A stretch of DNA of 64,000 bases from Escherichia coli. Its GTDB lineage: Bacteria; Pseudomonadota; Gammaproteobacteria; Enterobacterales; Enterobacteriaceae. The translations under genes were made by a program, and so were the position numbers. Positions within the stretch are counted from its first letter, which is position 1. Every line of letters starts with the position of its first letter. Shown here piece after piece: positions 7,131 to 51,221 of the stretch. The stretch lies in NCBI RefSeq assembly GCF_965641715.1, contig NZ_OZ282453.1, one strand, 5' to 3'. Under the pieces are notes generated by a model. It saw only the letters and a program-made list of their open reading frames with translations. It searched no databases and had not been told where the DNA came from.

Positions 7131-7480
7131 TGTCGGATGCGGCGTAAACGCCTTATCCGACCTGGATCCCCGTAGGCCGGACAAGACGCAAAGCGTCGCC
7201 TCCGGCATGGATGCGCCGAATGTCGGATGCGGCGTAAACGCCTTATCCGATCTACATTTCCGTAGGCCGGACAAGACGCGTAAGCGTCGCCTCCGGCATG
7301 GTGCGCCGAATGTCGGATGCGGCGTAAACGCCTTATCCGACCTGAATCCCCGTAGGCCGGACAAGACGCGTAAGCGTCGCCTCCGGCATGGTGCGCCGAT
7401 TGTCGGATGCGGCGTTAACGCCTTATCCGACCTACACTCTCGTAGGCCGGACAAGACGCGCAGCGTCGCCTCCGGCATGG
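7131..7480. repeat. REP/BIME array: four tandem pairs of repetitive extragenic palindromes in alternating orientation
   Basis: Units TGTCGGATGCGGCGTAAACGCCTTATCCGACC and CGTAGGCCGGACAAGACGC...AGCGTCGCCTCCGGCATGG each recur four times with about 95-nt periodicity between gabP and gabT. Confidence 0.9.
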
Positions 7481-23538: not shown

Positions 23539-23901
23539 TGGTGGAGCTGGCGGGAGTTGAACCCGCGTCCGAAATTCCTACATCCTCGGTACTACATGCT
23601 TAGTCAGTCTTTACATTCGCTTGCCAGCTGCGGACGGACACGCCACTAACAAACTAGCCTGATTAAGTTTTAACGCTTCAACCCCAGGCAGGGCTTCCAC
23701 GCGATCTCTTTTGGGTTTGACCTCTCTTGATCCCCGTCCTAAGAGCGGAGGCTAGGGAGAGAGGGCTCTAAGCAGGTTATTAAGCTGCTAAAGCGTAGTT
23801 TTCGTCGTTTGCGACTATTTTTTGCGGCTTTTTACGAGGCCAACCGCCCCTCGGCATGCACCTTGGGTTTCGCAAATCCCGTCGAATCCAGAATCAGCCC
23901 C
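23539..23901 (-). ncRNA. ssrA: tmRNA (SsrA), 363 nt
   Basis: Reverse complement matches the recalled E. coli tmRNA from 5' GGGGCUGAUUCUGGAUUCGACGGG... through the tag-encoding region to the 3' ...GGUUCAACUCCCGCCAGCUCCACCA. Confidence 0.97.
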
Positions 23902-40477: not shown

Positions 40478-41638
40478 TCAGGTTGGATCAACAGGCACTA
40501 CGTTCTCACTTGGGTAACAGCCCAATACCTTCATTGAACGGGTGATTTCCCCTAACTCTTTCAATGCTTTTTGCATTTCCGCTGATTCAAGATTGGCCTG
40601 AATATCCAGATAAAACATCTCTTCCCATGGATTACCGTGAATCGGGCGTGATTCCAGACGGGTCATAATCAGATTGTGGTTGCGCAGTACCAGCAACGCT
40701 TCAACCAGCGCACCGGCTTGTTGCCCGGTCGCCATTAACAACGTCGTTTTCGCCGGAACCTGATCAGACACGTTAATGGCTTTACGCGCCAACACCACAA
40801 ATCGGGTGAAGTTTTGTCGCTGATTCGCTTCAATCCGCTCCAGTACCTGCAAACCGTACAAAGTGCCGCCAGCTTCGCTTCCCAACGCAGCAACATGCGG
40901 TGATTTTGCCTGTGCAACCTTTTCCATTGCCGCAGACGTACTTTCGGTATATTCAATCTTCCAGTGCGGATAACGATTAAGGAATTTGCTGCATTGCTGG
41001 AATGGCTGCGGATGGCTGTAGACCGTATTGATGGTGGATAAATCAGTAGTGCCGGAGACCAACAAACAATGGTCGATAGTTAACGTCATCTCGCCAACAA
41101 TCGACAAGCTGGTATGTTGCAGCAGATCGTAAACGTCATTTATGGCACCGGAGCTGGTATTTTCAATCGGTACGACGGCATAGTCGGCCTGGCCGGTTTC
41201 CACCTGATTAAAAATATCGGCAAATTTGGCGCAGCCACTTTCAATGAATTGCTCAAAGTGACGGGCAGCATACTGGCGCGCCGCAAGATGGGAATAAGAA
41301 CCTTTGGGGCCGAGAAAAGCGATGCGTGCTGAGTGCGGATTAATTTTATTGAGATGTTGTTGGAGCAAAGCCTGCTGAGTTAATACGGAATCTTCAATGA
41401 TGAGCTGGAACAGGCGAGTAATGTAATGGGCGTCCAGATGGTGCGCTTTACCGAGCGTAATTAATCTTTCCAGTAAATCGCGTTCACGATCAATATCACG
41501 TACCGGGCGATGCGAGAGCAGTTTGGCTTTTCCCACCTCGACGGCCAGTTCGCGCCGCTCTGCGAGTAATGCTAATAATTTTTCATCCAGCGCGCTGATT
41601 TTCTCTCGCAGCGCCAGTAACGGGTTTTCCGATGTCAT
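40478..41638 (-). CDS. pheA: PheA chorismate mutase / prephenate dehydratase
   Basis: 386 aa [63 protein letters not shown]... Confidence 0.97.
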
Positions 41639-41661
41639 AGTGTTGCCTTTTTGTTATCAAT

Positions 41662-41688
41662 AAAAAAGGCCCCCCGATTTGGGAGGCC
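41662..41688 (-). terminator. pheA attenuator terminator
   Basis: Minus-strand hairpin GGCCTCCC-AAATC-GGGGGGCC followed by TTTTTT, between pheL and pheA. Confidence 0.85.
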
Positions 41689-41736
41689 TTATTGTTCGTC
41701 TTCGCATTCTGTTTCATACGACGAAACGCCTCCCAT

Positions 41737-41784
41737 TCAGGGGAAGGTAAAAAAGAATGCGAAGAAAAACGGTGTGTGTTTCAT
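41737..41784 (-). CDS. pheL: pheA leader peptide (Phe-rich), 15 aa
   Basis: Manual translation of the minus strand gives MKHTPFFFAFFFTFP-stop with seven Phe codons, classic attenuation leader. Confidence 0.9.
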   Translation of the reverse strand: MKHTPFFFAFFFTFP

Positions 41785-41840
41785 GTTTGTTTCCTTAAGT
41801 GACTTTAGTACAGTACCCGTACTGTTTTCACGCTGTCAAC

Positions 41841-41862
41841 AAAAAACGCGCCCGAAGGTGCG
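41841..41862 (-). terminator. Terminator-like hairpin immediately upstream of the pheA promoter (host side of the prophage junction)
   Basis: Minus-strand CGCACCTTCGGGCGCG hairpin followed by TTTTTT, abutting a TTGACA -35-like hexamer (plus 41834-41839). Confidence 0.5.
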
Positions 41863-41951
41863 TTGTAAAACCCACTGAATTCAATGTTTTCCCTTTGTTT
41901 TCAGTGGGTTTTGTTATTGGTGGGGGGTACTGATTACCCTATAAAACCCAC

Positions 41952-42974
41952 TTATGTGGATGAAATGTGGATGCCTCCTTTTAACGGATTAAGTGAAATT
42001 GCATCCTGGAGGAAATCAGGAGCGAGGTGCGCATAGGTCATAGTTTGCTGGATCGTGGCGTGCCCCATAATTCGCTGGAGCGTAAGTATATTTCCTCCAT
42101 TAATCATAAAGTGAGCTGCAAAGGTATGGCGTAGAACATGTACTGCCTGCCCTTTTGGTAGATCAGGTTTAACACTGCGAAGCACCTTGCGATATTCCTC
42201 ATAATTGACGTCAAACAAAAGGCCGGATTTCTTTGTTTTGATCTCGCTAACAACTTCATCAGAGACAGGAATAATTCGAACTTTTCCGTTTTTAGTTTTG
42301 TTAAACGTCACGCGGTTATTGATGATGTGTTCCGCGCGCAGATTTTTCGCTTCTCCCCATCTCGCACCAGTACTGAGACAAAGTAGCGTAATCCGCCGGG
42401 CATCACCGCTTACTGCATCCAGTAATTTGGCAATTTCTTCCGTGGTGAGATACGTCATTTCGGGTGATTTTCGTTTCAAAGAGGGGAGGGCGCGGAGCGG
42501 ATTTTCTCCGTGAAATTCCCCGGCATTTGCCAGGAGTGTAAACATTCCTCCGAGATCCGACTCATCACGCCGAACAGTAGACTCTTTTACTCCCAAAGAT
42601 AAACGGGAGCTTCGATAAGCGGCCATGAAACGAGCATTAATCTGGCTAACCCTTGGATCATTCATTTCTTTGATGATTTTTTTCAACCTGGTTAGAACGC
42701 CGTTAGCATATGGCTTATTGCGTCCACCCAATTCCCACCATAACGGAAGCAGATCTGAGAGATGACGTTGCTCTGTTGGCTTTTCAAGCCATTCCTTATC
42801 GTGCATGTGGCTGAGAACATAACGCTCAAAGGCCACTGCATCTGCCTTTTTCTTAAAAATCCGCTGAATCCGACGTCCACTTCGGCCACGCGGTCTAACA
42901 TCCACTTTATACCGTCCACCATCGAGTGCTTTAATTGCCATTGGCAAGCCCTCCGGTGAAACGAGGAAAGACAT
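41952..42974 (-). CDS. int: P2-type tyrosine integrase
   Basis: 340 aa ORF; ...RLKAEHIINNRVTFNKTKNGKVRIIPVSDEV...HVLRHTFAAHFMINGGNILTLQRIMGHATIQQTMTYAHLAPDFLQDAISLNPL closely resembles P2 Int as recalled (catalytic R...HxxR...Y). Confidence 0.93.
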   Translation of the reverse strand: MSFLVSPEGLPMAIKALDGGRYKVDVRPRGRSGRRIQRIFKKKADAVAFERYVLSHMHDKEWLEKPTEQRHLSDLLPLWWELGGRNKPYANGVLTRLKKIIKEMNDPRVSQINARFMAAYRSSRLSLGVKESTVRRDESDLGGMFTLLANAGEFHGENPLRALPSLKRKSPEMTYLTTEEIAKLLDAVSGDARRITLLCLSTGARWGEAKNLRAEHIINNRVTFNKTKNGKVRIIPVSDEVVSEIKTKKSGLLFDVNYEEYRKVLRSVKPDLPKGQAVHVLRHTFAAHFMINGGNILTLQRIMGHATIQQTMTYAHLAPDFLQDAISLNPLKGGIHISST

Positions 42975-43007
42975 TTCCAGTTTGTAAAACGTAAGAATAA
43001 TAAAGGG

Positions 43008-43310
43008 TTAACCAATTTTCCTTTCGGATGGGGGTAAATCCGTTGGTTCTTGCCCATAGTGTGCGAGAGCCGGAGCTATCTGCCCGGATTCAGGCGCAAT
43101 TTTTCCAGTCATAAACCACAACGCATATTTCTCAAATCTGGGGTTGTTTAGTATTTGCTCAATTACTTCAGCATTAGGGATAGTTTTACCGCTTTCATAT
43201 CTCCACAGAGCATCACGGTTTAAACCAAGCATTTTTGCTGTATCCGGGAGGCTAGTAAGTCTCTCGCTTTCACGCATGATTTTTATGCGCTCTCCAATAG
43301 TCATACGCAT
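43008..43310 (-). CDS. P2 C-type immunity repressor
   Basis: ORF 43008-43325 (start ambiguous among three in-frame ATGs); ...YALWFMTGKIAPESGQIAPALAHYGQEPT... matches the recalled P2 C repressor C-terminal region. Confidence 0.85.
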   Translation of the reverse strand: MRMTIGERIKIMRESERLTSLPDTAKMLGLNRDALWRYESGKTIPNAEVIEQILNNPRFEKYALWFMTGKIAPESGQIAPALAHYGQEPTDLPPSERKIG

Positions 43311-43405
43311 GTTGCAATTCTCCAACGTCTGTATTAATGTTTATACAAATGAGTTTGATTTGGGGCATCCGTCGCAAGAAATACCCCAAACAGGGAGATT
43401 ATCAC

Positions 43406-43732
43406 ATGAATGAAGAACTATTGAGGGCATTGTTTAAGATCCCAGACCCCATCACCGTCGATGAGTTTTCCCGCCGCACAGGTAAGACCGAATCAGCCGT
43501 AAGAAAGTTGGTAGAGCGTCGACTCATCCCTCTAACTACTGAGCGCGAGGTTTTAGGCGAGGAAGGGAGTTCGCGCCGTCTTCTCATCCTTTGGAATGAG
43601 TGGCTCGAAATGGTCTATGACGCAACGAAACAGCTTCCTCCTGAGCGTAAAGATTGGCGCAATCACTGGCTGAAGAAAGCCAAGAAGCTGGCGGAAGATT
43701 TGGGATTAGGTTTTCTTAATTTTGCTGCATGA
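43406..43732 (+). CDS. cox: Cox-like excisionase / transcriptional switch protein
   Basis: Divergent from the repressor gene; GGGAG RBS; HTH-like segment DEFSRRTGKTESAVRKLVERRLIPL resembles P2 Cox. Confidence 0.7.
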   Translation: MNEELLRALFKIPDPITVDEFSRRTGKTESAVRKLVERRLIPLTTEREVLGEEGSSRRLLILWNEWLEMVYDATKQLPPERKDWRNHWLKKAKKLAEDLGLGFLNFAA

Positions 43733-43750
43733 GATGCAGGGAGTTTTGAT

Positions 43751-44092
43751 ATGAAACAGCAACGTAATTCACGCTTTCGTAATGGCGCTGAACGCCACGC
43801 TAACCGTTTCGCTACCAGCGCATCACGCAGCAACATCCGCTACAGCCTGAGTGATACACACGCAACGCCGGATGGCTACCCAGTAAAACAAATCGGCGAG
43901 CATGCCTGGCTGATTGAAAAAGCTGGAATCGTGGTCCACAAATGCCCACGCAATCCGTTTACCGGAAACCGCATTTTTGCATTGAGCTGCGGCGACAATC
44001 AGTTCGGGCAGGATTTCACATTGTACGAAGCGCTACGCACGGTTGATCGTCTGCTCCGCGGACAAAGTTTTATTAAACAGGCTGATTTATAA
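43751..44092 (+). CDS. Hypothetical prophage early protein (113 aa)
   Basis: ORF with GGGAG RBS in the early operon; no recognisable motif. Confidence 0.55.
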   Translation: MKQQRNSRFRNGAERHANRFATSASRSNIRYSLSDTHATPDGYPVKQIGEHAWLIEKAGIVVHKCPRNPFTGNRIFALSCGDNQFGQDFTLYEALRTVDRLLRGQSFIKQADL

Positions 44093-44102
44093 CAGGTGCT
44101 TT

Positions 44103-44390
44103 ATGACCAAAGACCATGCACAAGGTGTATTTATCCGTTTTATTGATTTTCGCGGTGAACTGTTATTACGCGCATCCGCTATTGATGGAGTGGCTCCGGC
44201 GGGTAAAAACGGAGCCGACGAAGCCACTTACGTTTATCTGAACGGCACGCGACTGCTTGTGGAACTTCCGTACCAGACCGTACGAGAAATCATTAGCAAA
44301 GCTGAAAAAGCGCGCCAGGCTAATGGCAATGAACCCTATATCGAAATTATTTGCATGGATTCAGAAGCTGAAATCCAGAAAGCAGATTAA
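44103..44390 (+). CDS. Hypothetical prophage early protein (95 aa)
   Basis: ORF 44043-44390 with internal start MTKDHAQGVFIRFIDFRGELLLRASAIDG...; co-directional early operon. Confidence 0.5.
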   Translation: MTKDHAQGVFIRFIDFRGELLLRASAIDGVAPAGKNGADEATYVYLNGTRLLVELPYQTVREIISKAEKARQANGNEPYIEIICMDSEAEIQKAD

Positions 44391-44401
44391 AGGGCGTTGC
44401 G

Positions 44402-44644
44402 ATGGGCAAAGAATATAAAACTCTCATTAACAAAGCACTTGAGCGTTTCTATTTTCGCTTAAGTGCATCAGGCGCTCATGCTGAACGTGCTGCCCGTGAC
44501 TCATTGACCAGGGCAATCCGGAGTCTGTATGACGTGGCTTTTTACGCTGATGATCTGGATGCACCTAACGAACTTTCCGAGCTGATCTGTGCCGCAGAAT
44601 GCGGGGAACATATTGAACCGTATAAGCTGGGGAATATCGCATGA
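44402..44644 (+). CDS. Hypothetical prophage early protein (80 aa)
   Basis: ORF in early operon, tightly packed with neighbours. Confidence 0.5.
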   Translation: MGKEYKTLINKALERFYFRLSASGAHAERAARDSLTRAIRSLYDVAFYADDLDAPNELSELICAAECGEHIEPYKLGNIA

Positions 44645-44754
44645 GTATATTTATCTCATGGCTTGTTCTGATTATTTCGGTGGTCTGCGCCATTGGGATT
44701 ATGCGAATTATTAATTCAGTGAAAAAGATCGAGCGTTTTTTCTCTGATGAATAA
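44641..44754 (+). CDS. Possible small hydrophobic protein (37 aa)
   Basis: Manual translation MSIFISWLVLIISVVCAIGIMRIINSVKKIERFFSDE; ATG overlaps the previous stop; single predicted TM helix; below ORF-track cut-off. Confidence 0.35.
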   Translation: MSIFISWLVLIISVVCAIGIMRIINSVKKIERFFSDE

Positions 44755-44846
44755 CGATACAAATAAAACATCAAATTAAATAAGAAAACGTGAAAACCAT
44801 CCGTATTAACGGAGGTATTCGCACACGTAAATAATGGAGATATAAA

Positions 44847-45263
44847 ATGAACGCAAAAGAAGAAGGCATTATCGACACATTAAAAAAAATATCAGAAGCG
44901 GAAGATGAAATGGCTAAAGATGACGTGAAGCGTAGCCAACATATGGCAGCACTTCACGCACTGACCATCGCAAAAATCACCGCTGACGCAGCCAAAATTA
45001 TTGAGGAACAGGGCAAAGAAATCGACACTCTTAAAACACAGTCAACAGTTGCAGCCATGAATCCGTCCAGCATTGGACGCCGCATTTACATTCTTGGTTC
45101 GGCAATAATGACGCAATACACCATTATTGCCGAACTGCACGGCAAATACCTGATAACGCCTTACCACACAAAAGAGTCAGAGCTTCTGACAAATCTCCGC
45201 CTGATAGAACGCTCTCAAGCTGTATTCATTGATGACGCGCAACGTGCCGTATTTAACGCATAG
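44847..45263 (+). CDS. Hypothetical prophage early protein (138 aa)
   Basis: ORF with RBS; no recognisable motif. Confidence 0.55.
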   Translation: MNAKEEGIIDTLKKISEAEDEMAKDDVKRSQHMAALHALTIAKITADAAKIIEEQGKEIDTLKTQSTVAAMNPSSIGRRIYILGSAIMTQYTIIAELHGKYLITPYHTKESELLTNLRLIERSQAVFIDDAQRAVFNA

Positions 45264-45286
45264 GGTTACTGGACAAAGGGGGCGCA

Positions 45287-45490
45287 ATGGCAATTAAGCA
45301 TTTTCCCGTCGTTCGCTTTACCTCCAGAGGGCGCGAATACGAGGTCGACGAACGCCTGATTACCACTATCGACAAACATCGTTCGGAAAAGGATGCACAC
45401 CACATCTACCTCACTGACGGCACTTACTTCTGCGCCACCAACGTGGCGCGGGTGAATCTTATCCGACAGGTACAGGAGCCACACAGATGA
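45287..45490 (+). CDS. Hypothetical prophage early protein (67 aa)
   Basis: ORF with AAGGGGG RBS; stop overlaps next start (ATGA). Confidence 0.5.
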   Translation: MAIKHFPVVRFTSRGREYEVDERLITTIDKHRSEKDAHHIYLTDGTYFCATNVARVNLIRQVQEPHR

Positions 45491-45753
45491 CCATTCTGGA
45501 CTACATCGCTACTCATCCGGGGTGTAGCGGCGGAGAGATCGCCGCAGCACTGAATACTCCAACCACAGCCATTAATGCTGAGTTACGCCAACTTTGGCGC
45601 GGCGGCTTAGTCATCAGAACAAACCGCAGCACAGGTGGTCGCGCTCGCAAAACTGGAGGCCAGGCTTCTTACCACGTAAACCCGATGCCGTTCGGGTGTA
45701 GCAATCCACTTACTCACATGTTTAACCAGCTACTGAAGGAAGCCAGAGCATGA
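45487..45753 (+). CDS. Small winged-helix-like DNA-binding protein (88 aa)
   Basis: MTILDYIATHPGCSGGEIAAALNTPTTAINAELRQLWRGGLVIRT... resembles a winged-helix recognition unit; translationally coupled to neighbours. Confidence 0.55.
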   Translation: MTILDYIATHPGCSGGEIAAALNTPTTAINAELRQLWRGGLVIRTNRSTGGRARKTGGQASYHVNPMPFGCSNPLTHMFNQLLKEARA

Positions 45754-46049
45754 GCACCATCAACCACCAGAAGCTACGCGAACTGGCATTTGCCCTGCAA
45801 CGAATGGCAACGCCTCAAAAATTACTGGCATTTCGCGCAATGCTCTCGCCGTCTGCTGTGCTGGCATTGCTGGATGAGCTGGAGCACGCCAGAACCACGG
45901 CTCCTGCCATTCGCCTGACGCTCCATCATGAAATCGCTGATTTCTGCGCGACATTGGAGGCGCCAGGCGAACCGGAAACGCCGGAAGCAATACAGCAAGA
46001 GCCGCTGCAACGCATTGACAAGGTTTTTGATTTTTTTCTGAACCAGTAA
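45750..46049 (+). CDS. Hypothetical prophage early protein (99 aa)
   Basis: ORF translationally coupled to upstream gene. Confidence 0.5.
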   Translation: MSTINHQKLRELAFALQRMATPQKLLAFRAMLSPSAVLALLDELEHARTTAPAIRLTLHHEIADFCATLEAPGEPETPEAIQQEPLQRIDKVFDFFLNQ

Positions 46050-46371
46050 GAAACCAGAGCATGCACACACAAAAAAACCGCTTGCCATGCCGCAATCAGT
46101 CAGGTTACATTTTCGCTGCACCTCATAAAACGGGTGCCGGGTTTCGCAGCCTGCTGACAACCAAAGCGCACAACCGCGCCAGCGGTTTTTTTGTGCGTAC
46201 TGTATTGCCACGTTTTTTTCGCGTCAGAATTATGGCGGGGCGTACGGGGCCGACTTCGGTCGGGCCGGGTTCTTTGGTTGCCGGTACTGCGAACCCCGTA
46301 CGTCTCGCCACCCACAGTTTCGCAGCTCTGGATGGTGAGTTTTCAAAACTTACAACCAAAGAGGCCACACC

Positions 46372-46602
46372 ATGGCAAACCGCAAACAGCACCGCGCTAT
46401 CGCGGAGCGTCGTCACATCCAGACTGAAATCAACCGCAGACTTTCCCGCGCATTCCGCGTCGCTAAAATCATGCACATCAATATGCTGCATGAGCGTAGC
46501 TGCGAACTTTCAAACCTCTACTCATCCGCTGTTTTCAGCTATCTGGCGGATGATCTGCGCGAGCTTCAACAGCTCATCCAGCAGCAAAACAAACTCCATT
46601 AA
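46372..46602 (+). CDS. Hypothetical prophage early protein (76 aa)
   Basis: ORF with AGAGG RBS; protein-like composition, unlike the overlapping 205-aa ORF in another frame. Confidence 0.5.
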   Translation: MANRKQHRAIAERRHIQTEINRRLSRAFRVAKIMHINMLHERSCELSNLYSSAVFSYLADDLRELQQLIQQQNKLH

Positions 46603-46674
46603 TTCCTGTTCCGGGCCTTTCCTGCACCTTGCGGCGGGAGGCCTTCGCACATCTGTAACAAGAGGATTGCCGCA

Positions 46675-47040
46675 ATGATTCTCGCCAACGACTTTCTTGA
46701 ATACCTGCTCAACACAGAGCGTGATCTTGCCGCTCGCGTACGTGATCGTTATGACATGTATCTGAAATCCCTGCCTGTACCGCAGCTCGCTGACGGAAAG
46801 ATTGTTATTGATGGTCGCTACATGATTGACAGCCACGAGGGAAATTACAGGCTTTACCGCATTGAAGGTGGCACCCCGTCCGTTATTGGCATTTACCAGC
46901 GCCCATCCTCTGCAATCGTCGATGTGATTGCCGACAGCATCCGCATCACACATCGCCATGCCGACACAGAAGACACCGTGCTGGAAATTCAGCGGCTGGC
47001 TGCCGTCTGCCGCGACACCCTGAATGGCATGACGAAGTAA
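46675..47040 (+). CDS. Hypothetical prophage early protein (121 aa), immediately upstream of replication gene A
   Basis: ORF with GAGGA RBS; occupies the position of P2 early/replication accessory genes. Confidence 0.55.
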   Translation: MILANDFLEYLLNTERDLAARVRDRYDMYLKSLPVPQLADGKIVIDGRYMIDSHEGNYRLYRIEGGTPSVIGIYQRPSSAIVDVIADSIRITHRHADTEDTVLEIQRLAAVCRDTLNGMTK

Positions 47041-47046
47041 ATCACT

Positions 47047-49869
47047 ATGACGGCAGAGTACATCAGGGACTGGCAACAACCGCGCCACGCAGTGGGACGT
47101 GAAGGAACGGGGATCCCCGTTCCTGAATCCGCGCTTTCCTCCTGGCTGGATGCCTACCGGGCAGAGAACGAGCGCCGCCAGGAAATGGCTGATGCGGCGT
47201 TCTCCGCCACGCCGCTGGGCAACCTGATTAATAAAAGCCTGGATGCACAGGAAAAACAGGACAAAACCATCACACTGGCAGGAGACGCCAGAAAACAGGT
47301 ACGCGGTGCGGTGGATGAAGCCATGGCCTCGCTGCGCCTGCTGCCGTCCTATCTGCGCGATCCGCTTATTCGCCACCTCTCCTTCCTGCGCAAAAAACAG
47401 GAAGCCGATCGCCGGAAAGGCAAAAAGAGCTGGCAGGCTGAACGCTACGCGCGCGGAACCCTGCGCAAAATATTCGAACGTCTGGACCGCACCGACCACC
47501 GCTGGCTGACACCGGGTTATCGCTCCCTTGCCGGACGCGAACGCCTGGATGATTTGCTTTACCTGCCGCAGCTCAACAAGCACCAGATACAGACGCTGGC
47601 CACCATGACGGCGGCGATGTTCAGCAGCACCTTCGAAAAACTCTGCGATGGCTTTGGCGCGACTGATGGCGAGCTGACCATGGATGTAACGCTGAAGGCG
47701 TATCAGATGCTGGCCCGCATGGCGTTACACCTGCACGCCATGCCTCCGCATTATGATGCACTGACAACAGACAAAGACCGGAGGAACGAACCGGACACGG
47801 AGCTGCTGCCGGGCGCAATCCTTCGCCTGACCTGTGCGGAATGGTGGAAACGCAAACTGTGGCTGTTACGTTGCGAGTGGCGGGAAGAACAACTCCGCGC
47901 CGCCTGTCTGGTTTCCAGAAAAACATCGCCCTATCTGAGCCAGGACGCGTTAAGCGAGTTTCGCGCACAGCGCGAGAAAACACGCGATTTCCTGAAAAGT
48001 TTCATGCTGGAAAACGAAGACGGGTTCACGATTGATCTCGAGACGGTGTATTACGCGGGAGTAAGTAACCCGGTTCATCGTAAGGCAGAAATGATGGCCA
48101 CCATGAAGGGGCTGGAACTTCTGGCCGAAGCCCGTGGCGACAAAGCGGTGTTTCTGACTGTCACCTGCCCGTCAAAATACCACGCCACAACAGAGAACGG
48201 TCATCCGAATCCCAAATGGAACGGGGCCACCATGCGCGACTCCAGCGATTACCTGGTTAACACGTTTTTTGCGGCGGTCCGCAAGAAACTGAACCGCGAC
48301 GGCCTGCGCTGGTATGGCATCCGCACGGTGGAGCCTCACCATGACGGCACCGTGCACTGGCATATGATGGTCTTTGCTCATCCGGAAGAAATCGACACCA
48401 TTGTGTCCCACACCCGCGATATTGCCATTCAGGAAGATCGTCACGAGCTGGGTGATGATATTACCCCACGCTTTAAGGCGGAGTACGTCGACGGCTCAAA
48501 AGGCACACCGACCAGCTACATCGCCACCTACATCGGGAAAAACCTGGACAGCCGTGCCGTGGATGGCATCGACCCGAAAACGGGCAAGCCACGCGTTGAC
48601 CACGAAACCGGAAAATCAATGGCCGAGAGCGTGGAACGCGCCATCGGCTGGGCGCGCCTTCATCGGGTCCGCCAGTTCCAGTTCTTTGGCATCCCCTCCC
48701 GTCAGGTGTGGCGTGAACTGCGCCGCCTTGCCAGCCAGATGGCTCGCAACCCGGAAGGACCGCAACGGCTGAAGGATGACGCAATGGACGCGGTTCTTGC
48801 TGCCGCTGATGCCGGATGTTTTGCCACCTACATAGAGAAACAGGGCGGCGTACTTGTTCCACGCAAGGACTACCTGATTCGCACCGCCTACGACCTCGCA
48901 GATGAGCTGAACGATTACGGTGAACAGAGCGTACAGATTTACGGGATCTGGTCACCGCTCATCGGGGAGTCTTCCCGCGTATGCACGCATCCGGACAACT
49001 GGAAGCTGGTAAGACGCAAACCGGAAGCGGAAGACAGCGCCCGCGAAAATGGTTTTGACCTTCAGGGCGGCCCTGCCGCCCCTTGGACTCGTGGCAATAA
49101 CTGTCCCCGTGTACAGGAAACAGGCAACAGCGGGACAGAACAGTCGAAAGAACGGCCAGCACCGTGGCCGCAGCTTCCTGACGGCGTTGACGTGAACGAA
49201 TGGATGCGCTCACTGAAACGGCACGAACGCCGGGCGCTGATGCGTTCGCTTCGTGACAAACAGGCAAAAAACAGCAGTGATGAAATGCAGAGCTGGACAC
49301 AGAGCCGCAAACAGCCACGGCCTTTGCCTGATAACCACGAATTACTCGCTAAAGAATGGCGGGAGTCTGCTGAATCTCTCGGCCTGCATATCGGTGAACA
49401 ACAGATGCAGCACCTGTTACGGGGCGGCAGTCTGTACGTTGACGGCAGCATCATTGCACCGCAGGGATTTGAAATTGTACGCAAACCGGATACCCGCCCG
49501 GACAGCCGAATCACGCAGCTCTGGCAGCGCCTGAGCCGTAATCATGGCGTAAGCAGCACGGAGATCCGCCATAACCCGGTCGCCAGCTATCTGGCACAGC
49601 TGGGGGCATCAGACCCTGAAGCCGCCGCACGCCTGGCATCCACACTTCAGCAGGACCAGAACACCATGAAAACACCCGTTACCGTGCTTTCTGACATGCT
49701 GCGCGCCATCCGCGACGCAGAGCACGCACAGAGAATCAGTGAAACCACTGAACGCGCCAGCCGCAAAGCAGACCTGCTGCGGGGTGGCCTGACCAGTGGA
49801 AACAAAAAACAGACAGAAACGGGATTCACAAATCCCATAAATGAGCAAAAAACGTGCCGCGATATATGA
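47047..49869 (+). CDS. P2 gpA-like rolling-circle replication initiator endonuclease (940 aa)
   Basis: HUH-type motif region ...GIRTVEPHHDGTVHWHMMVFAHPEE...; position after the early ORFs matches P2 gene A; unusually long C-terminal region. Confidence 0.85.
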   Translation: MTAEYIRDWQQPRHAVGREGTGIPVPESALSSWLDAYRAENERRQEMADAAFSATPLGNLINKSLDAQEKQDKTITLAGDARKQVRGAVDEAMASLRLLPSYLRDPLIRHLSFLRKKQEADRRKGKKSWQAERYARGTLRKIFERLDRTDHRWLTPGYRSLAGRERLDDLLYLPQLNKHQIQTLATMTAAMFSSTFEKLCDGFGATDGELTMDVTLKAYQMLARMALHLHAMPPHYDALTTDKDRRNEPDTELLPGAILRLTCAEWWKRKLWLLRCEWREEQLRAACLVSRKTSPYLSQDALSEFRAQREKTRDFLKSFMLENEDGFTIDLETVYYAGVSNPVHRKAEMMATMKGLELLAEARGDKAVFLTVTCPSKYHATTENGHPNPKWNGATMRDSSDYLVNTFFAAVRKKLNRDGLRWYGIRTVEPHHDGTVHWHMMVFAHPEEIDTIVSHTRDIAIQEDRHELGDDITPRFKAEYVDGSKGTPTSYIATYIGKNLDSRAVDGIDPKTGKPRVDHETGKSMAESVERAIGWARLHRVRQFQFFGIPSRQVWRELRRLASQMARNPEGPQRLKDDAMDAVLAAADAGCFATYIEKQGGVLVPRKDYLIRTAYDLADELNDYGEQSVQIYGIWSPLIGESSRVCTHPDNWKLVRRKPEAEDSARENGFDLQGGPAAPWTRGNNCPRVQETGNSGTEQSKERPAPWPQLPDGVDVNEWMRSLKRHERRALMRSLRDKQAKNSSDEMQSWTQSRKQPRPLPDNHELLAKEWRESAESLGLHIGEQQMQHLLRGGSLYVDGSIIAPQGFEIVRKPDTRPDSRITQLWQRLSRNHGVSSTEIRHNPVASYLAQLGASDPEAAARLASTLQQDQNTMKTPVTVLSDMLRAIRDAEHAQRISETTERASRKADLLRGGLTSGNKKQTETGFTNPINEQKTCRDI

Positions 49870-49945
49870 AGCGCGCACAAAACAGGCAAAAGCGGGATTT
49901 AAAAATCCTGTAAACGATTAATTAATCAACATAAGGAAAAGCGAC

Positions 49946-50905
49946 ATGAAAATTTGTATCGACGACGGCTCCACCAACATCAAGCTGGCATGGACTGAGA
50001 ACGGCGAACGCCGCAACGCCATCAGCCCGAACAGCTTCAAGTCGGAATGGTCTGCGCCGTTCGGTGGCTCGCAGCCCGCGAACTACATGCTTGATGGCGT
50101 GCGCTATGGTTTTGATCCGGTCAGCGATCGCTTTGTCCAGACGACCGACACGCAATACCAGTACAGCGATGTGAATGTCATTGCCATTCATCACGCGCTG
50201 GTCAAATCAGGCATCACGCCACAGGAGGTGGATGTGGTTGTCACCCTGCCATTGAGCGAGTATTTCGACACAAACGCACAGCCGGACATGGCCAACATCA
50301 GCCGCAAAAAAGCGAACGTTATGCGCCCGGTGGAGTACCAGAACGGCGAAACATTCACTATCCGTAACGTACGGGTTATGCCTGAATCCATTCCGGCTGG
50401 CTTTAAAGCACTGGCTGACATGAGTCCGCTTGAATCCCTGCTGATTGTGGATTTGGGCGGAACCACACTGGATGTGGCAAAGGTTCAGGGGCAACTGGCA
50501 GGTATCAGCCAGGTGTTTTGCGATCCACACGTAGGCGTTTCCCTGATGGCCGATGCCGTACTGTCGGTGATGGCCACTAACGGTATGCGTATCAGTCACC
50601 ACATCGCCAATACCATTATCGAACATCGCCATGATGAAGCCTGGTTGCGCCAGCACATCCACAATGACGCGCATTACGCCAGCCTGATGGCGGTTATTCG
50701 TGAAAAGGAAGAAACACTGAAACAACGCGTGATCCGCGCGCTGGCGGTTTTTTCGGGTTACGGGCGGGTGATGGTTGTCGGTGGCGGGGCGGAGATTGTG
50801 GCACCCGCTATCCGCGAAGCCTGCGGAGTTAATGCGACTTTCATCGCGGACGGGGTGCCACAGTTTGCTCTGGTTAATGGGCTGTACGCAATGGACAAGG
50901 AGTAA
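49946..50905 (+). CDS. ParM/StbA-like actin-fold ATPase (319 aa)
   Basis: N-terminus MKICIDDGSTNIKLAWTE...ISPNSFKSEW...YQYSDVNVIAIHHALVKSGI...LIVDLGGTTLDVA... matches the recalled plasmid R1 ParM phosphate-1/connect/phosphate-2 motifs; strong RBS. Confidence 0.8.
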   Translation: MKICIDDGSTNIKLAWTENGERRNAISPNSFKSEWSAPFGGSQPANYMLDGVRYGFDPVSDRFVQTTDTQYQYSDVNVIAIHHALVKSGITPQEVDVVVTLPLSEYFDTNAQPDMANISRKKANVMRPVEYQNGETFTIRNVRVMPESIPAGFKALADMSPLESLLIVDLGGTTLDVAKVQGQLAGISQVFCDPHVGVSLMADAVLSVMATNGMRISHHIANTIIEHRHDEAWLRQHIHNDAHYASLMAVIREKEETLKQRVIRALAVFSGYGRVMVVGGGAEIVAPAIREACGVNATFIADGVPQFALVNGLYAMDKE

Positions 50906-50909
50906 ACCA

Positions 50910-51221
50910 ATGACGACTCCAACCAGACGGATAAGTTTCTATCTGAAGCCCGCCGCCGTCAAGAACGAAGGTGAAGCATGCGCCTGGCTGGACAGCCTTA
51001 CACCAGAAGCGCGCAAAAGCGGCCAACGCGTGGCTTTTCTGGCCGGGCTGGCACTTCTGAAAATGAATCCGGCAGAGGCTTACCGACTGGCTGCATGGGC
51101 TGATGATGAAGCGTTATCAGTGACACAAACCAGGACAGAACGCCCCGCGTCACAGCCAGTATCAACCGCACAGATAACCAGTCAGATGGCCGGAAATATC
51201 CGGGCGTTATTTCCCGAATAA
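50910..51221 (+). CDS. ParR-like small DNA-binding protein (103 aa), partner of the ParM-like ATPase
   Basis: ORF 50775-51221 with probable start MTTPTRRISFYLKPAAV...; RRISFYLKP...RVAFLAGLALLKMNP...NIRALFPE parallels recalled R1 ParR (RRTIAFKLNP...RAALTAGLALYRQDP...ILRSLFPKE); 4-nt gap after parM-like gene. Confidence 0.7.
   Translation: MTTPTRRISFYLKPAAVKNEGEACAWLDSLTPEARKSGQRVAFLAGLALLKMNPAEAYRLAAWADDEALSVTQTRTERPASQPVSTAQITSQMAGNIRALFPE

Follow-up and report, generated by a model that had tools for sequence, protein, structure and literature searches.

Small-RNA switches of the kind considered here are already known from the immI locus of phage P1, the immunity system of satellite P4 and the isrK locus of prophage Gifsy-1. 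In P1 and P7, pairing of c4 RNA around the ribosome-binding site that precedes ant blocks antirepressor synthesis and sets heteroimmunity (PMC12197685). The CI RNA of P4, a processing product of the PLE transcript, base-pairs with seqA as well as seqC and leads to premature termination (PMC4825925). IsrK of Gifsy-1, a structural homologue of P4 seqA, activates translation of a read-through transcript, yielding AnrP and prophage induction, and deletion of the isrK promoter abolishes spontaneous induction (PMC4825925). Here, Rfam detects both RNAs of such a system, a C4 antisense RNA and an IsrK-type leader, in a P2-family prophage of Escherichia coli. They lie in the early operon at positions 43,751 to 47,040 of a 64,000-nucleotide (nt) stretch of chromosome, hereafter the window, and precede ORF9, the ninth of ten small open reading frames (ORFs) between cox and the replication gene A. 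We read this, with good though not full confidence, as the early operon of a P88-like phage carrying an RNA-gated antirepressor cassette that works both as a switch and as RNA-coded immunity. A literature search for 'C4 antisense RNA' with P2-like found no description of such a system in P2-family phages, and the Rfam models give no C4 or isrK match in P2 and 186.

The cassette comprises, in order, a promoter-like site, a leader with targets a1 and b1, a C4 RNA with antisense segments b' and a', downstream targets a2 and b2, ORF9 and a terminal hairpin (Table 1). P4 has the same order and spacing on its minus strand, with a promoter-like site first, then an isrK-like leader and its terminator (8692-8615), CI RNA (C4 match at 8507-8420), epsilon, orf151, orf106 and alpha. 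Both share a promoter, an isrK-like leader and terminator, a C4-family RNA, an epsilon-family gene, small ORFs and a replication gene, and the P4 promoter has the same geometry (TTGCCT-18-TATAGT, 7 nt before the isrK-like match). However, P4 is a satellite, whereas the cassette resides in a complete P2-family phage that encodes int, C, cox and A. The downstream target of the cassette lies directly on the Shine-Dalgarno sequence of the epsilon-like gene, while P4 has small ORFs (kil/eta) between CI and epsilon. P4 epsilon has 95 amino acids (aa) against 76 in ORF9, and the a'/b' sequences are unlike. Within the operon region examined (41000-51000), no homologue of P4 alpha, sid, psu or delta is encoded, the flanking genes being P2-type int, C, cox and A, and tblastn finds no alpha match beside the cassette in related loci.

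The immI locus of P1 and P7 (c4-icd-ant) likewise places a C4-family RNA, with a'/b' complementary to a1/b1 and a2/b2, upstream of an antirepressor gene. Unlike the cassette, it encodes an Ant protein from a family unrelated to epsilon, contains the coupling ORF icd where only a putative 31-codon ORF occurs here, and comes in far fewer specificity types than the approximately 14 seen in this study. Gifsy-1 isrK-orf45(STnc1160)-anrP resembles the cassette in its IsrK-family leader with its own promoter, in a downstream RNA complementary to the leader and in its antirepressor output; the Gifsy-1 terminator is leaky, and its downstream RNA is processed. It differs in being lambdoid and in translating AnrP through orf45 coupling, in contrast to ORF9, whose own Shine-Dalgarno sequence lies inside b2. 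The 31-codon ORF (46332-46427, plus strand) is out of frame with ORF9 and has no evident Shine-Dalgarno sequence. It begins 7 nt past a2, so that a2 sits where its ribosome-binding site would be, and by analogy it could be a counterpart of P1 icd or Gifsy-1 orf45, acting in translational coupling.

Both RNAs fit their families. They occupy the 322-nt spacer between ORF8 and ORF9, which the initial annotation had treated as empty. The C4 RNA folds into a 17-bp closing stem and two hairpins, its minimum free energy structure (-49.8 kcal/mol) being the Rfam consensus, and every one of its 27 stem pairs is kept in 100% of 48 distinct sequences, with compensatory changes at two pairs. The -10 element of the promoter-like site before the leader is invariant in 49 sequences, and the Rfam c4-a1b1 model reaches only 19.6 bits against 46.7. 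Both RNAs and part of ORF9 are overlain, in a different frame, by a 205-aa ORF (46061-46678, plus strand), which was rejected as coding because it shows no codon-position bias (substitutions 56/73/62) and overlaps the two RNAs. It matches Pfam Phage_ASH at 30 bits against a cut-off of 26, and the old P4 'cI' ORF over CI RNA also exceeds that cut-off, so Phage_ASH matches translated RNA genes here and in P4. In RefSeq and GenBank records the RNAs are covered by a pseudogene ('ash family protein') or by a 'transcriptional regulator', and no non-coding RNA is listed. Two further candidate elements were discarded: a third a-site (TTCGCAC, 46645-46651), which stays constant while a' varies, and a second promoter-like site (46205-46233), whose -35 element is not conserved.

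Direct reading of the sequence shows that a' is complementary to a1 and a2, and b' to b1 and b2. The a'/a2 duplex has 7 bp and the b'/b2 duplex 11 bp, covering five of the six Shine-Dalgarno bases, with energies of -10.5 and -14.2 kcal/mol for a2 and b2, respectively. All three partners were already seen to change together in five phage sequences. A scan of IMG/VR with the invariant first C4 hairpin recovered more than 120 loci, 98 of them with an ORF9-like gene next and usually A after that; these 98 cassette sequences form the alignment, and pair counts refer to its 48 distinct sequences. Four a' and eight b' variants give about 14 specificity combinations across the 98, and one extra code in the set belongs to a lambdoid sequence that slipped in.

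Cognate partners remain fully complementary in nearly all of these relatives. The b'/b1 pairing is complete (9 of 9) in 96 and b'/b2 reaches at least 8 of 9 in 97, while all seven positions match in 96 for a'/a1 and in 97 for a'/a2; non-cognate combinations mostly form 2-7 pairs. Counted by duplex, a1/a' is 99.7% paired with two-sided change in 5 of 7 pairs, b1/b' 99.3% (7 of 9), a'/a2 98.5% (4 of 7) and b'/b2 97.7% (6 of 11). Overall, 96-99% of cells are paired and 12-13 pairs have changed on both sides. None of 500 shuffles reached the observed paired-cell percentage or covariation score, and slid controls were about 40% paired. The antisense segments, the leader targets and the downstream targets thus covary as a three-way set. 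The C4 code of P88 (TGTAGTTG/GTGGAAA) is a natural type that is non-cognate to the C4 of the window.

The immediate output of the cassette, ORF9, belongs to the P4 epsilon family. It passes the Pfam Derepression model (PF25738) with 29.5 bits against a cut-off of 27, where P4 epsilon itself scores 167.9, and shares 32% identity with epsilon over 50 aa (BLASTP, E = 2e-8). In 94 of the 98 relatives ORF9 starts at exactly +123 nt from the C4 hairpin. By analogy with epsilon, ORF9 is a putative antirepressor of the P2-type C repressor. The prophage's own C keeps L63, W64, T67 and I70, and T67 and I70 are required in P2 C for P4 E binding. ORF9 evolves fast, with 48 nonsynonymous versus 25 synonymous codon differences, and it is C-rich and G-poor (31-33 C versus 17-22 G per 100 nt), a rut-like composition. 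The C repressors of P88-like phages form at least ten clusters less than 50% identical to each other, and the epsilon-like protein only five, common to several C types. A one-to-one co-variation of ORF9 type with C type is ruled out, as ORF9 types are shared across C types. Separately, a C-terminal 'GQ(I/V)xP(A/P)L' motif is kept in all C repressors of P88-like phages. A literature search for 'derepression protein' with P2-like returned nothing relevant.

As judged from sequence conservation, the cassette is a portable, self-contained module of about 600 bp. Conservation begins abruptly near 46066 and stops near 46667, after a terminal hairpin that is nearly invariant even where the next gene differs, and among relatives both the cargo on the left and the gene on the right vary. 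This strong hairpin may serve as an RNA 3' end, in stability or in processing. The RNAs and ORF9 are jointly present in P88, Entero_P88(23), phiSM and P884B11 (loci L001, L002, L005 and L006) and jointly absent from 520873, 503458 and Chuche (L007-L009). Among 5426 complete E. coli genomes, 1153 (about 21%) carry the cassette at 80% coverage or more. An identical first C4 hairpin with other a'/b' codes occurs in lambdoid prophages (L015, L057, L087 and about 23 other IMG/VR loci), and in lambdoid and Stx prophages the RNA pair precedes a Rha-type antirepressor gene instead of an epsilon-like one. This distribution indicates that phage families have passed the RNA module among themselves and joined it to different antirepressors. 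The ORF8/cassette junction (46050-46065) is also a variable cargo site: 48 loci have no insert there, and 34 have one of 150-1300 bp. The inserts carry a Band_7/SPFH lipoprotein together with a membrane protein of 67 aa, a helix-turn-helix protein of 184 aa or a reverse-strand ORF of 161 aa (examples at L001:3884-4914 and L005:3767-4318), and PADLOC finds no confident match among the junction cargo proteins.

These features suggest an operon in four parts. A lineage-specific core of small proteins would comprise ORF1-4, ORF6, the MarR-type ORF7 and, in most relatives, ORF8; an optional ORF5, the portable cassette, and the Orf83-like ORF10 followed by A would make up the rest. The internal promoter (46082-46111) would produce a 75-nt IsrK/seqA-like leader that stops at its own terminator, and read-through transcripts would bear the C4/CI-type RNA, which RNase P presumably releases, following the precedent of P1 and P4. 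C4 would then pair through its b' loop with b2 and through its a' strand with a2 on the mRNA. Since b2 covers the ORF9 Shine-Dalgarno sequence, the epsilon-like antirepressor would not be translated while C4 is paired. The leader holds decoy copies of the targets, a1 and b1, and so could titrate C4 and switch ORF9 on, as experiments demonstrated for IsrK and AnrP in Gifsy-1. The ORF9 protein would bind P2-type C, as P4 epsilon binds P2 C, leading to derepression of Pe. Rho-dependent polarity on ORF10 and A may follow the block on ORF9; it is plausible because ORF9 is C-rich and G-poor, and it is not needed, since A persists in relatives that lack the cassette. Given the many matched a'/b' variants, the C4 RNA may also set a second, sequence-coded immunity specificity. 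Shine-Dalgarno occlusion, the leader decoy and C inactivation by ORF9 are proposed from the published P1/P7, P4 and Gifsy-1 systems, and RNA processing, the translational block, Rho polarity and C binding are likewise steps that we infer by analogy.

Several observations weigh against the antirepressor switch. The cassette is known here from its sequence alone, the promoter call comes from a consensus scan (plus conservation), and seven of the ten ORFs have no assigned mechanism. The cassette is also dispensable, as phages 520873, 503458 and Chuche exist without it. ORF9 is shorter than P4 epsilon (76 versus 95 aa) and barely exceeds its Pfam cut-off. Moreover, because the same ORF9 type occurs with C repressors less than 50% identical, a cognate match between ORF9 and C is not evident.

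A tentative alternative is transcriptional immunity in the style of P4, in which C4 would mainly cause Rho-dependent premature termination into ORF9 and keep A off in lysogens and superinfecting genomes, with control of ORF9 secondary. In P4, CI RNA controls the alpha operon in this manner (PMC4825925). ORF10 and A follow the cassette within one operon, the composition of ORF9 is rut-like, and in 186 internal terminators precede the replication genes. Yet b2 sits exactly on the ORF9 Shine-Dalgarno sequence, and a conserved hairpin closes the cassette, with a different gene next in some relatives. In addition, P88-like phages that lack the cassette still have A, and in lambdoid prophages the same cassette fronts antirepressor genes alone. 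Transcriptional immunity and the antirepressor switch are compatible and not mutually exclusive.

It is rather doubtful that ORF9 is aimed at the C repressors of competing or co-resident P2-family prophages and not at its own, as P4 epsilon is aimed at that of its helper. The idea draws on the action of P4 epsilon on a heterologous phage, on the nonsynonymous excess in ORF9, and on the occurrence of near-identical ORF9 types alongside heteroimmune C repressors sharing 28-48% identity. However, the prophage's own C retains the residues on which E binding depends in P2 C, and the antirepressors of the homologous P1 and Gifsy-1 cassettes target their own phage (PMC12197685, PMC4825925).

The initial annotation regarded the small ORFs as candidate host-takeover or anti-defence effectors, which now seems unlikely and, for the orphan ORFs, speculative. 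The ORFs are indeed early, small, lineage-restricted and without assigned function, and ORF5, preceded by a promoter-like site of its own, resembles an optional accessory gene. However, PADLOC gives no significant match to defence-related models among the ten ORFs, the sole marginal one being the ORF7 winged helix (E = 0.0073), and fold searches for the small ORFs found no informative folds. Other roles are likely for ORF7, ORF9 and ORF10. Finally, the idea that the RNA matches are a decayed, functionless remnant of recombination with a P4-like or lambdoid element, for which the RefSeq annotation of only an 'ash family protein' pseudogene at the RNA site could speak, is effectively refuted by the covariation, since the antisense elements vary in step with both target sets over about 14 types, both RNAs score far over their gathering thresholds with stems 100% paired, and the translated frame has no coding signature.

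Table 1. Coordinates of the cassette, the early operon and other features of the window
Feature	Position	Strand	Evidence or remark
naRNA4 (REP-type), three tandem matches	7175-7432	-	Upstream of prophage
tmRNA gene	23539-23901	-	Upstream of prophage
Phe leader (pheA)	41660-41785	-	Upstream of prophage
Integrase	41952-42974	-	
C repressor, P2-type	43008-43325	-	52% identical to P2 C
cox, first gene of early operon	43406-43732	+	Pfam Phage_Cox E = 1.3e-5, 25.3 bits vs cut-off 27.5
ORF1, DUF4761 protein, 113 aa	43751-44092	+	
ORF2, phrog_3800, 95 aa from ATG (115 aa from upstream TTG)	44103-44390	+	PHROG E = 1.2e-60
ORF3, DUF4754 protein, 80 aa	44402-44644	+	Pfam 177.9 bits
ORF4, 37-aa hydrophobic peptide	44641-44754	+	Start overlaps ORF3 stop (ATGA)
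Promoter-like site upstream of ORF5	44806-44835	+	Consensus scan
ORF5, 138 aa, optional AT-rich accessory gene	44847-45263	+	
ORF6, phrog_3459, 67 aa	45287-45490	+	PHROG E = 3.7e-45; stop overlaps ORF7 start
ORF7, MarR-type winged-helix DNA-binding protein, 88 aa	45487-45753	+	Pfam MarR_2 (PF12802) 29.1 bits vs 27
ORF8, phrog_4144, 99 aa	45750-46049	+	PHROG E = 2.5e-61
Probable RNA-gated antirepressor cassette: promoter, leader, C4, targets, ORF9, terminal hairpin	46066-46667	+	Conserved block
Promoter-like site TTGCCA-18-TACATT	46082-46111	+	Consensus scan; ends 7 nt before first base of leader
IsrK/seqA-like leader RNA	46118-46192	+	Rfam RF01394 65.9 bits vs gathering 50
a1 site, in leader hairpin loop	46143-46149	+	
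b1 site, in leader	46158-46166	+	
Intrinsic terminator of leader + U7 run	46172-46187	+	
C4/CI-type antisense RNA	46228-46315	+	Rfam RF01695 87.1 bits vs gathering 45; model positions 1-87, full length
b', loop of C4 hairpin 2	46269-46280	+	GUUCUUUGGUUG
a', C4 junction strand	46287-46293	+	CUGCGAA
a2 site	46319-46325	+	
b2 site	46353-46363	+	Overlaps ORF9 Shine-Dalgarno
ORF9 Shine-Dalgarno AAGAGG	46359-46364	+	ATG at 46372
ORF9, P4 epsilon-family 'derepression' protein, 76 aa	46372-46602	+	Putative antirepressor
Hairpin at right edge of cassette	46613-46644	+	No U-tract; predicted fold of 46600-46680, -24 kcal/mol
ORF10, 121 aa	46675-47040	+	About 40-aa N-terminal extension relative to Orf83; directly upstream of A
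A, rolling-circle replication initiator, ends operon segment	47047-49869	+	Pfam Phage_GPA 438 bits

All ten co-directional plus-strand ORFs between cox and A are present where the initial annotation placed them, and homologues are annotated in P88-like phages. They are also more than chance frames: nine of the ten match PHROG families (E = 1e-37 to 1e-80), and substitution patterns are coding-like. Counted against relatives at codon positions 1/2/3, substitutions number 10/6/41 in ORF1, 8/14/55 in ORF3, 15/10/33 in ORF4, 20/28/89 in ORF6 and 27/20/62 in ORF10. ORF5 has no ungapped homologue and the single ungapped homologue of ORF7 has no substitutions, so in the lack of a usable comparison their coding status rests on PHROG and, for ORF7, also on Pfam. 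The tight or overlapping packing described earlier holds overall, with ATGA start/stop overlaps at ORF3/4, ORF6/7 and ORF7/8, but not at two gaps, one of 92 nt before ORF5 and the other of 322 nt at 46050-46371. The winged-helix-like ORF of the initial annotation is ORF7, which also matches phrog_1687 'MarR family regulator' (E = 7e-32). It is not the only ORF with a recognisable feature, as ORF9 falls in the Derepression family, ORF1 in DUF4761 and ORF3 in DUF4754.

The remaining ORFs show a mixture of conserved and optional genes. ORF2 has only 19 representatives among 1.84 billion proteins in an exhaustive HMMER search. ORF4, the one ORF without a PHROG match, is labelled 'membrane protein' in P88; it keeps 84-92% aa identity in six P88-like phage loci, with partial matches of 51-69% in a seventh (L008). 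ORF5 lies within an AT-rich insertion of about 440 bp between ORF4 and ORF6 (GC 0.41-0.42), occurs in 39 of the 98 related loci and forms two allelic groups about 55% identical to one another; from these sequence features, it behaves like an independently expressed accessory gene. ORF6 also matches part of phrog_19053, a profile that additionally covers ORF7, and the N-terminus of ORF8 is weakly Ead/Ea22-like (Pfam Ead_Ea22, 22.7 bits, under the cut-off of 27). The families of ORF1, ORF2, ORF5 and ORF10 are confined to Enterobacterales and carry no functional names, as judged by HMMER for ORF2 and by word-indexed searches for the others. PDB sequence searches with ORF1, 2, 3, 5, 6, 9 and 10 gave chance-level matches only, an NCBIfam scan of the operon ORFs gave nothing useful, and literature searches for DUF4761, DUF4754 and DUF5405 returned nothing relevant.

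Comparison with P2 and 186 places the operon more precisely. The initial annotation was right to see a P2-family early operon at the site of P2 B/orf80-83, and BLAST-level similarity to P2 and 186 early proteins is absent: tblastn of the ten ORFs against both early regions finds nothing significant, only A being homologous. No homologue of B, Orf78, Orf80 (DUF2732), Orf81, Orf82 (DksA-like), cII, fil or dhr occurs among the operon ORFs, and none of the ten has a Pfam match to DUF2732 or a DksA-type zinc finger. The early operons of P2 and 186 are alike in having small co-directional genes between cox/apl and A, and their DUF5405-type gene directly before A probably has its counterpart in ORF10. 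Homology of each ORF to P2 early proteins, raised earlier as a possibility, therefore holds at most in part, probably for ORF10, and fails at BLAST level for the others. ORF10 occupies the position of Orf83 and is a probable divergent homologue of P2 Orf83/DUF5405. This assignment draws on sequence profiles: Pfam DUF5405 (PF17399) matches ORF10 at E = 0.086 and a 68%-identical variant at E = 0.0028, both below the cut-off, a PF17399 hit is precomputed for the relative P0016, and hhalign against P2 Orf83 and its 186 homologue gives a probability of 46% (E = 2e-4) over 75 columns, Orf83 residues 4-87.

Where P2 has B/orf78-83, this P2-family prophage of the P88-like type (Xuanwuvirus) thus carries its Pe-driven early operon. 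By megablast, 43300-47100 falls among P88-like phages (Xuanwuvirus, Peduoviridae), at 88-93% identity. The segment 43740-47045 is matched in 1554 of 5426 complete E. coli genomes, which makes the prophage very common. The window itself is Escherichia chromosome with tmRNA, pheA and the Phe leader. The prophage starts just past the pheA leader, and because the integrase gene begins about 170 nt beyond that leader, the attachment site should lie within this short interval. The cox gene is divergent from the C repressor gene. At the other end, the A product is 31-35% identical to P2 and 186 A. It has 940 aa, of which only residues 179-503 form the Phage_GPA domain, and it aligns to P2/186 A up to about residue 706-739, leaving a long C-terminal extension without an assigned domain. 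Directly 3' of A, a ParM/StbA actin-like ATPase (49946-50905, plus strand) is followed by a Plasmid_stab_B protein (50910-51221, plus strand), a plasmid-type partition pair in a P2-family prophage. An ORF of 353 aa on the reverse strand (46522-47583, minus strand) runs antisense to ORF9, ORF10 and A and most likely just reflects the GC-rich coding sequence that it faces.

A broader and more speculative idea, improbable as it stands, is that the cassette forms a combinatorial RNA 'immunity code' in which at least four a' and at least eight b' variants shuffle freely. P2-family helper-type phages, P4-like satellites and lambdoid prophages have the same type of cassette in common, and RNA cross-talk could arise between co-resident elements. 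If so, a resident C4 could silence the antirepressor, and perhaps the replication, of an incoming element with the same code, and the leader of an incoming element could sponge up resident C4 and cause induction, amounting to RNA warfare that includes helper against satellite. P88-like phages would then be a likely evolutionary source of the P4 immunity-epsilon module, or a sibling to it.

A survey of P4-like satellites reported delta/ogr as the sole clear homology linking P4 to P2-like phages (PMC8628076). The cassette ties the immunity and derepression module of satellite P4 to the phage family that P4 parasitises. Although it occurs in about one fifth of complete E. coli genomes, it is annotated only as an 'ash family protein' pseudogene and a hypothetical protein, which means that two widespread regulatory RNAs have been missed or mis-translated. 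With about 14 antisense/target sets matched in nature, the cassette supplies a ready panel of RNA regulators that may be orthogonal. P2-type C repressors are not known to be cleaved by RecA and P2 itself is non-inducible, so the exit from lysogeny of P2-family prophages with C-type repressors is not well explained. A C4/IsrK pair gating a built-in epsilon-type antirepressor would provide a concrete, testable route out of lysogeny.

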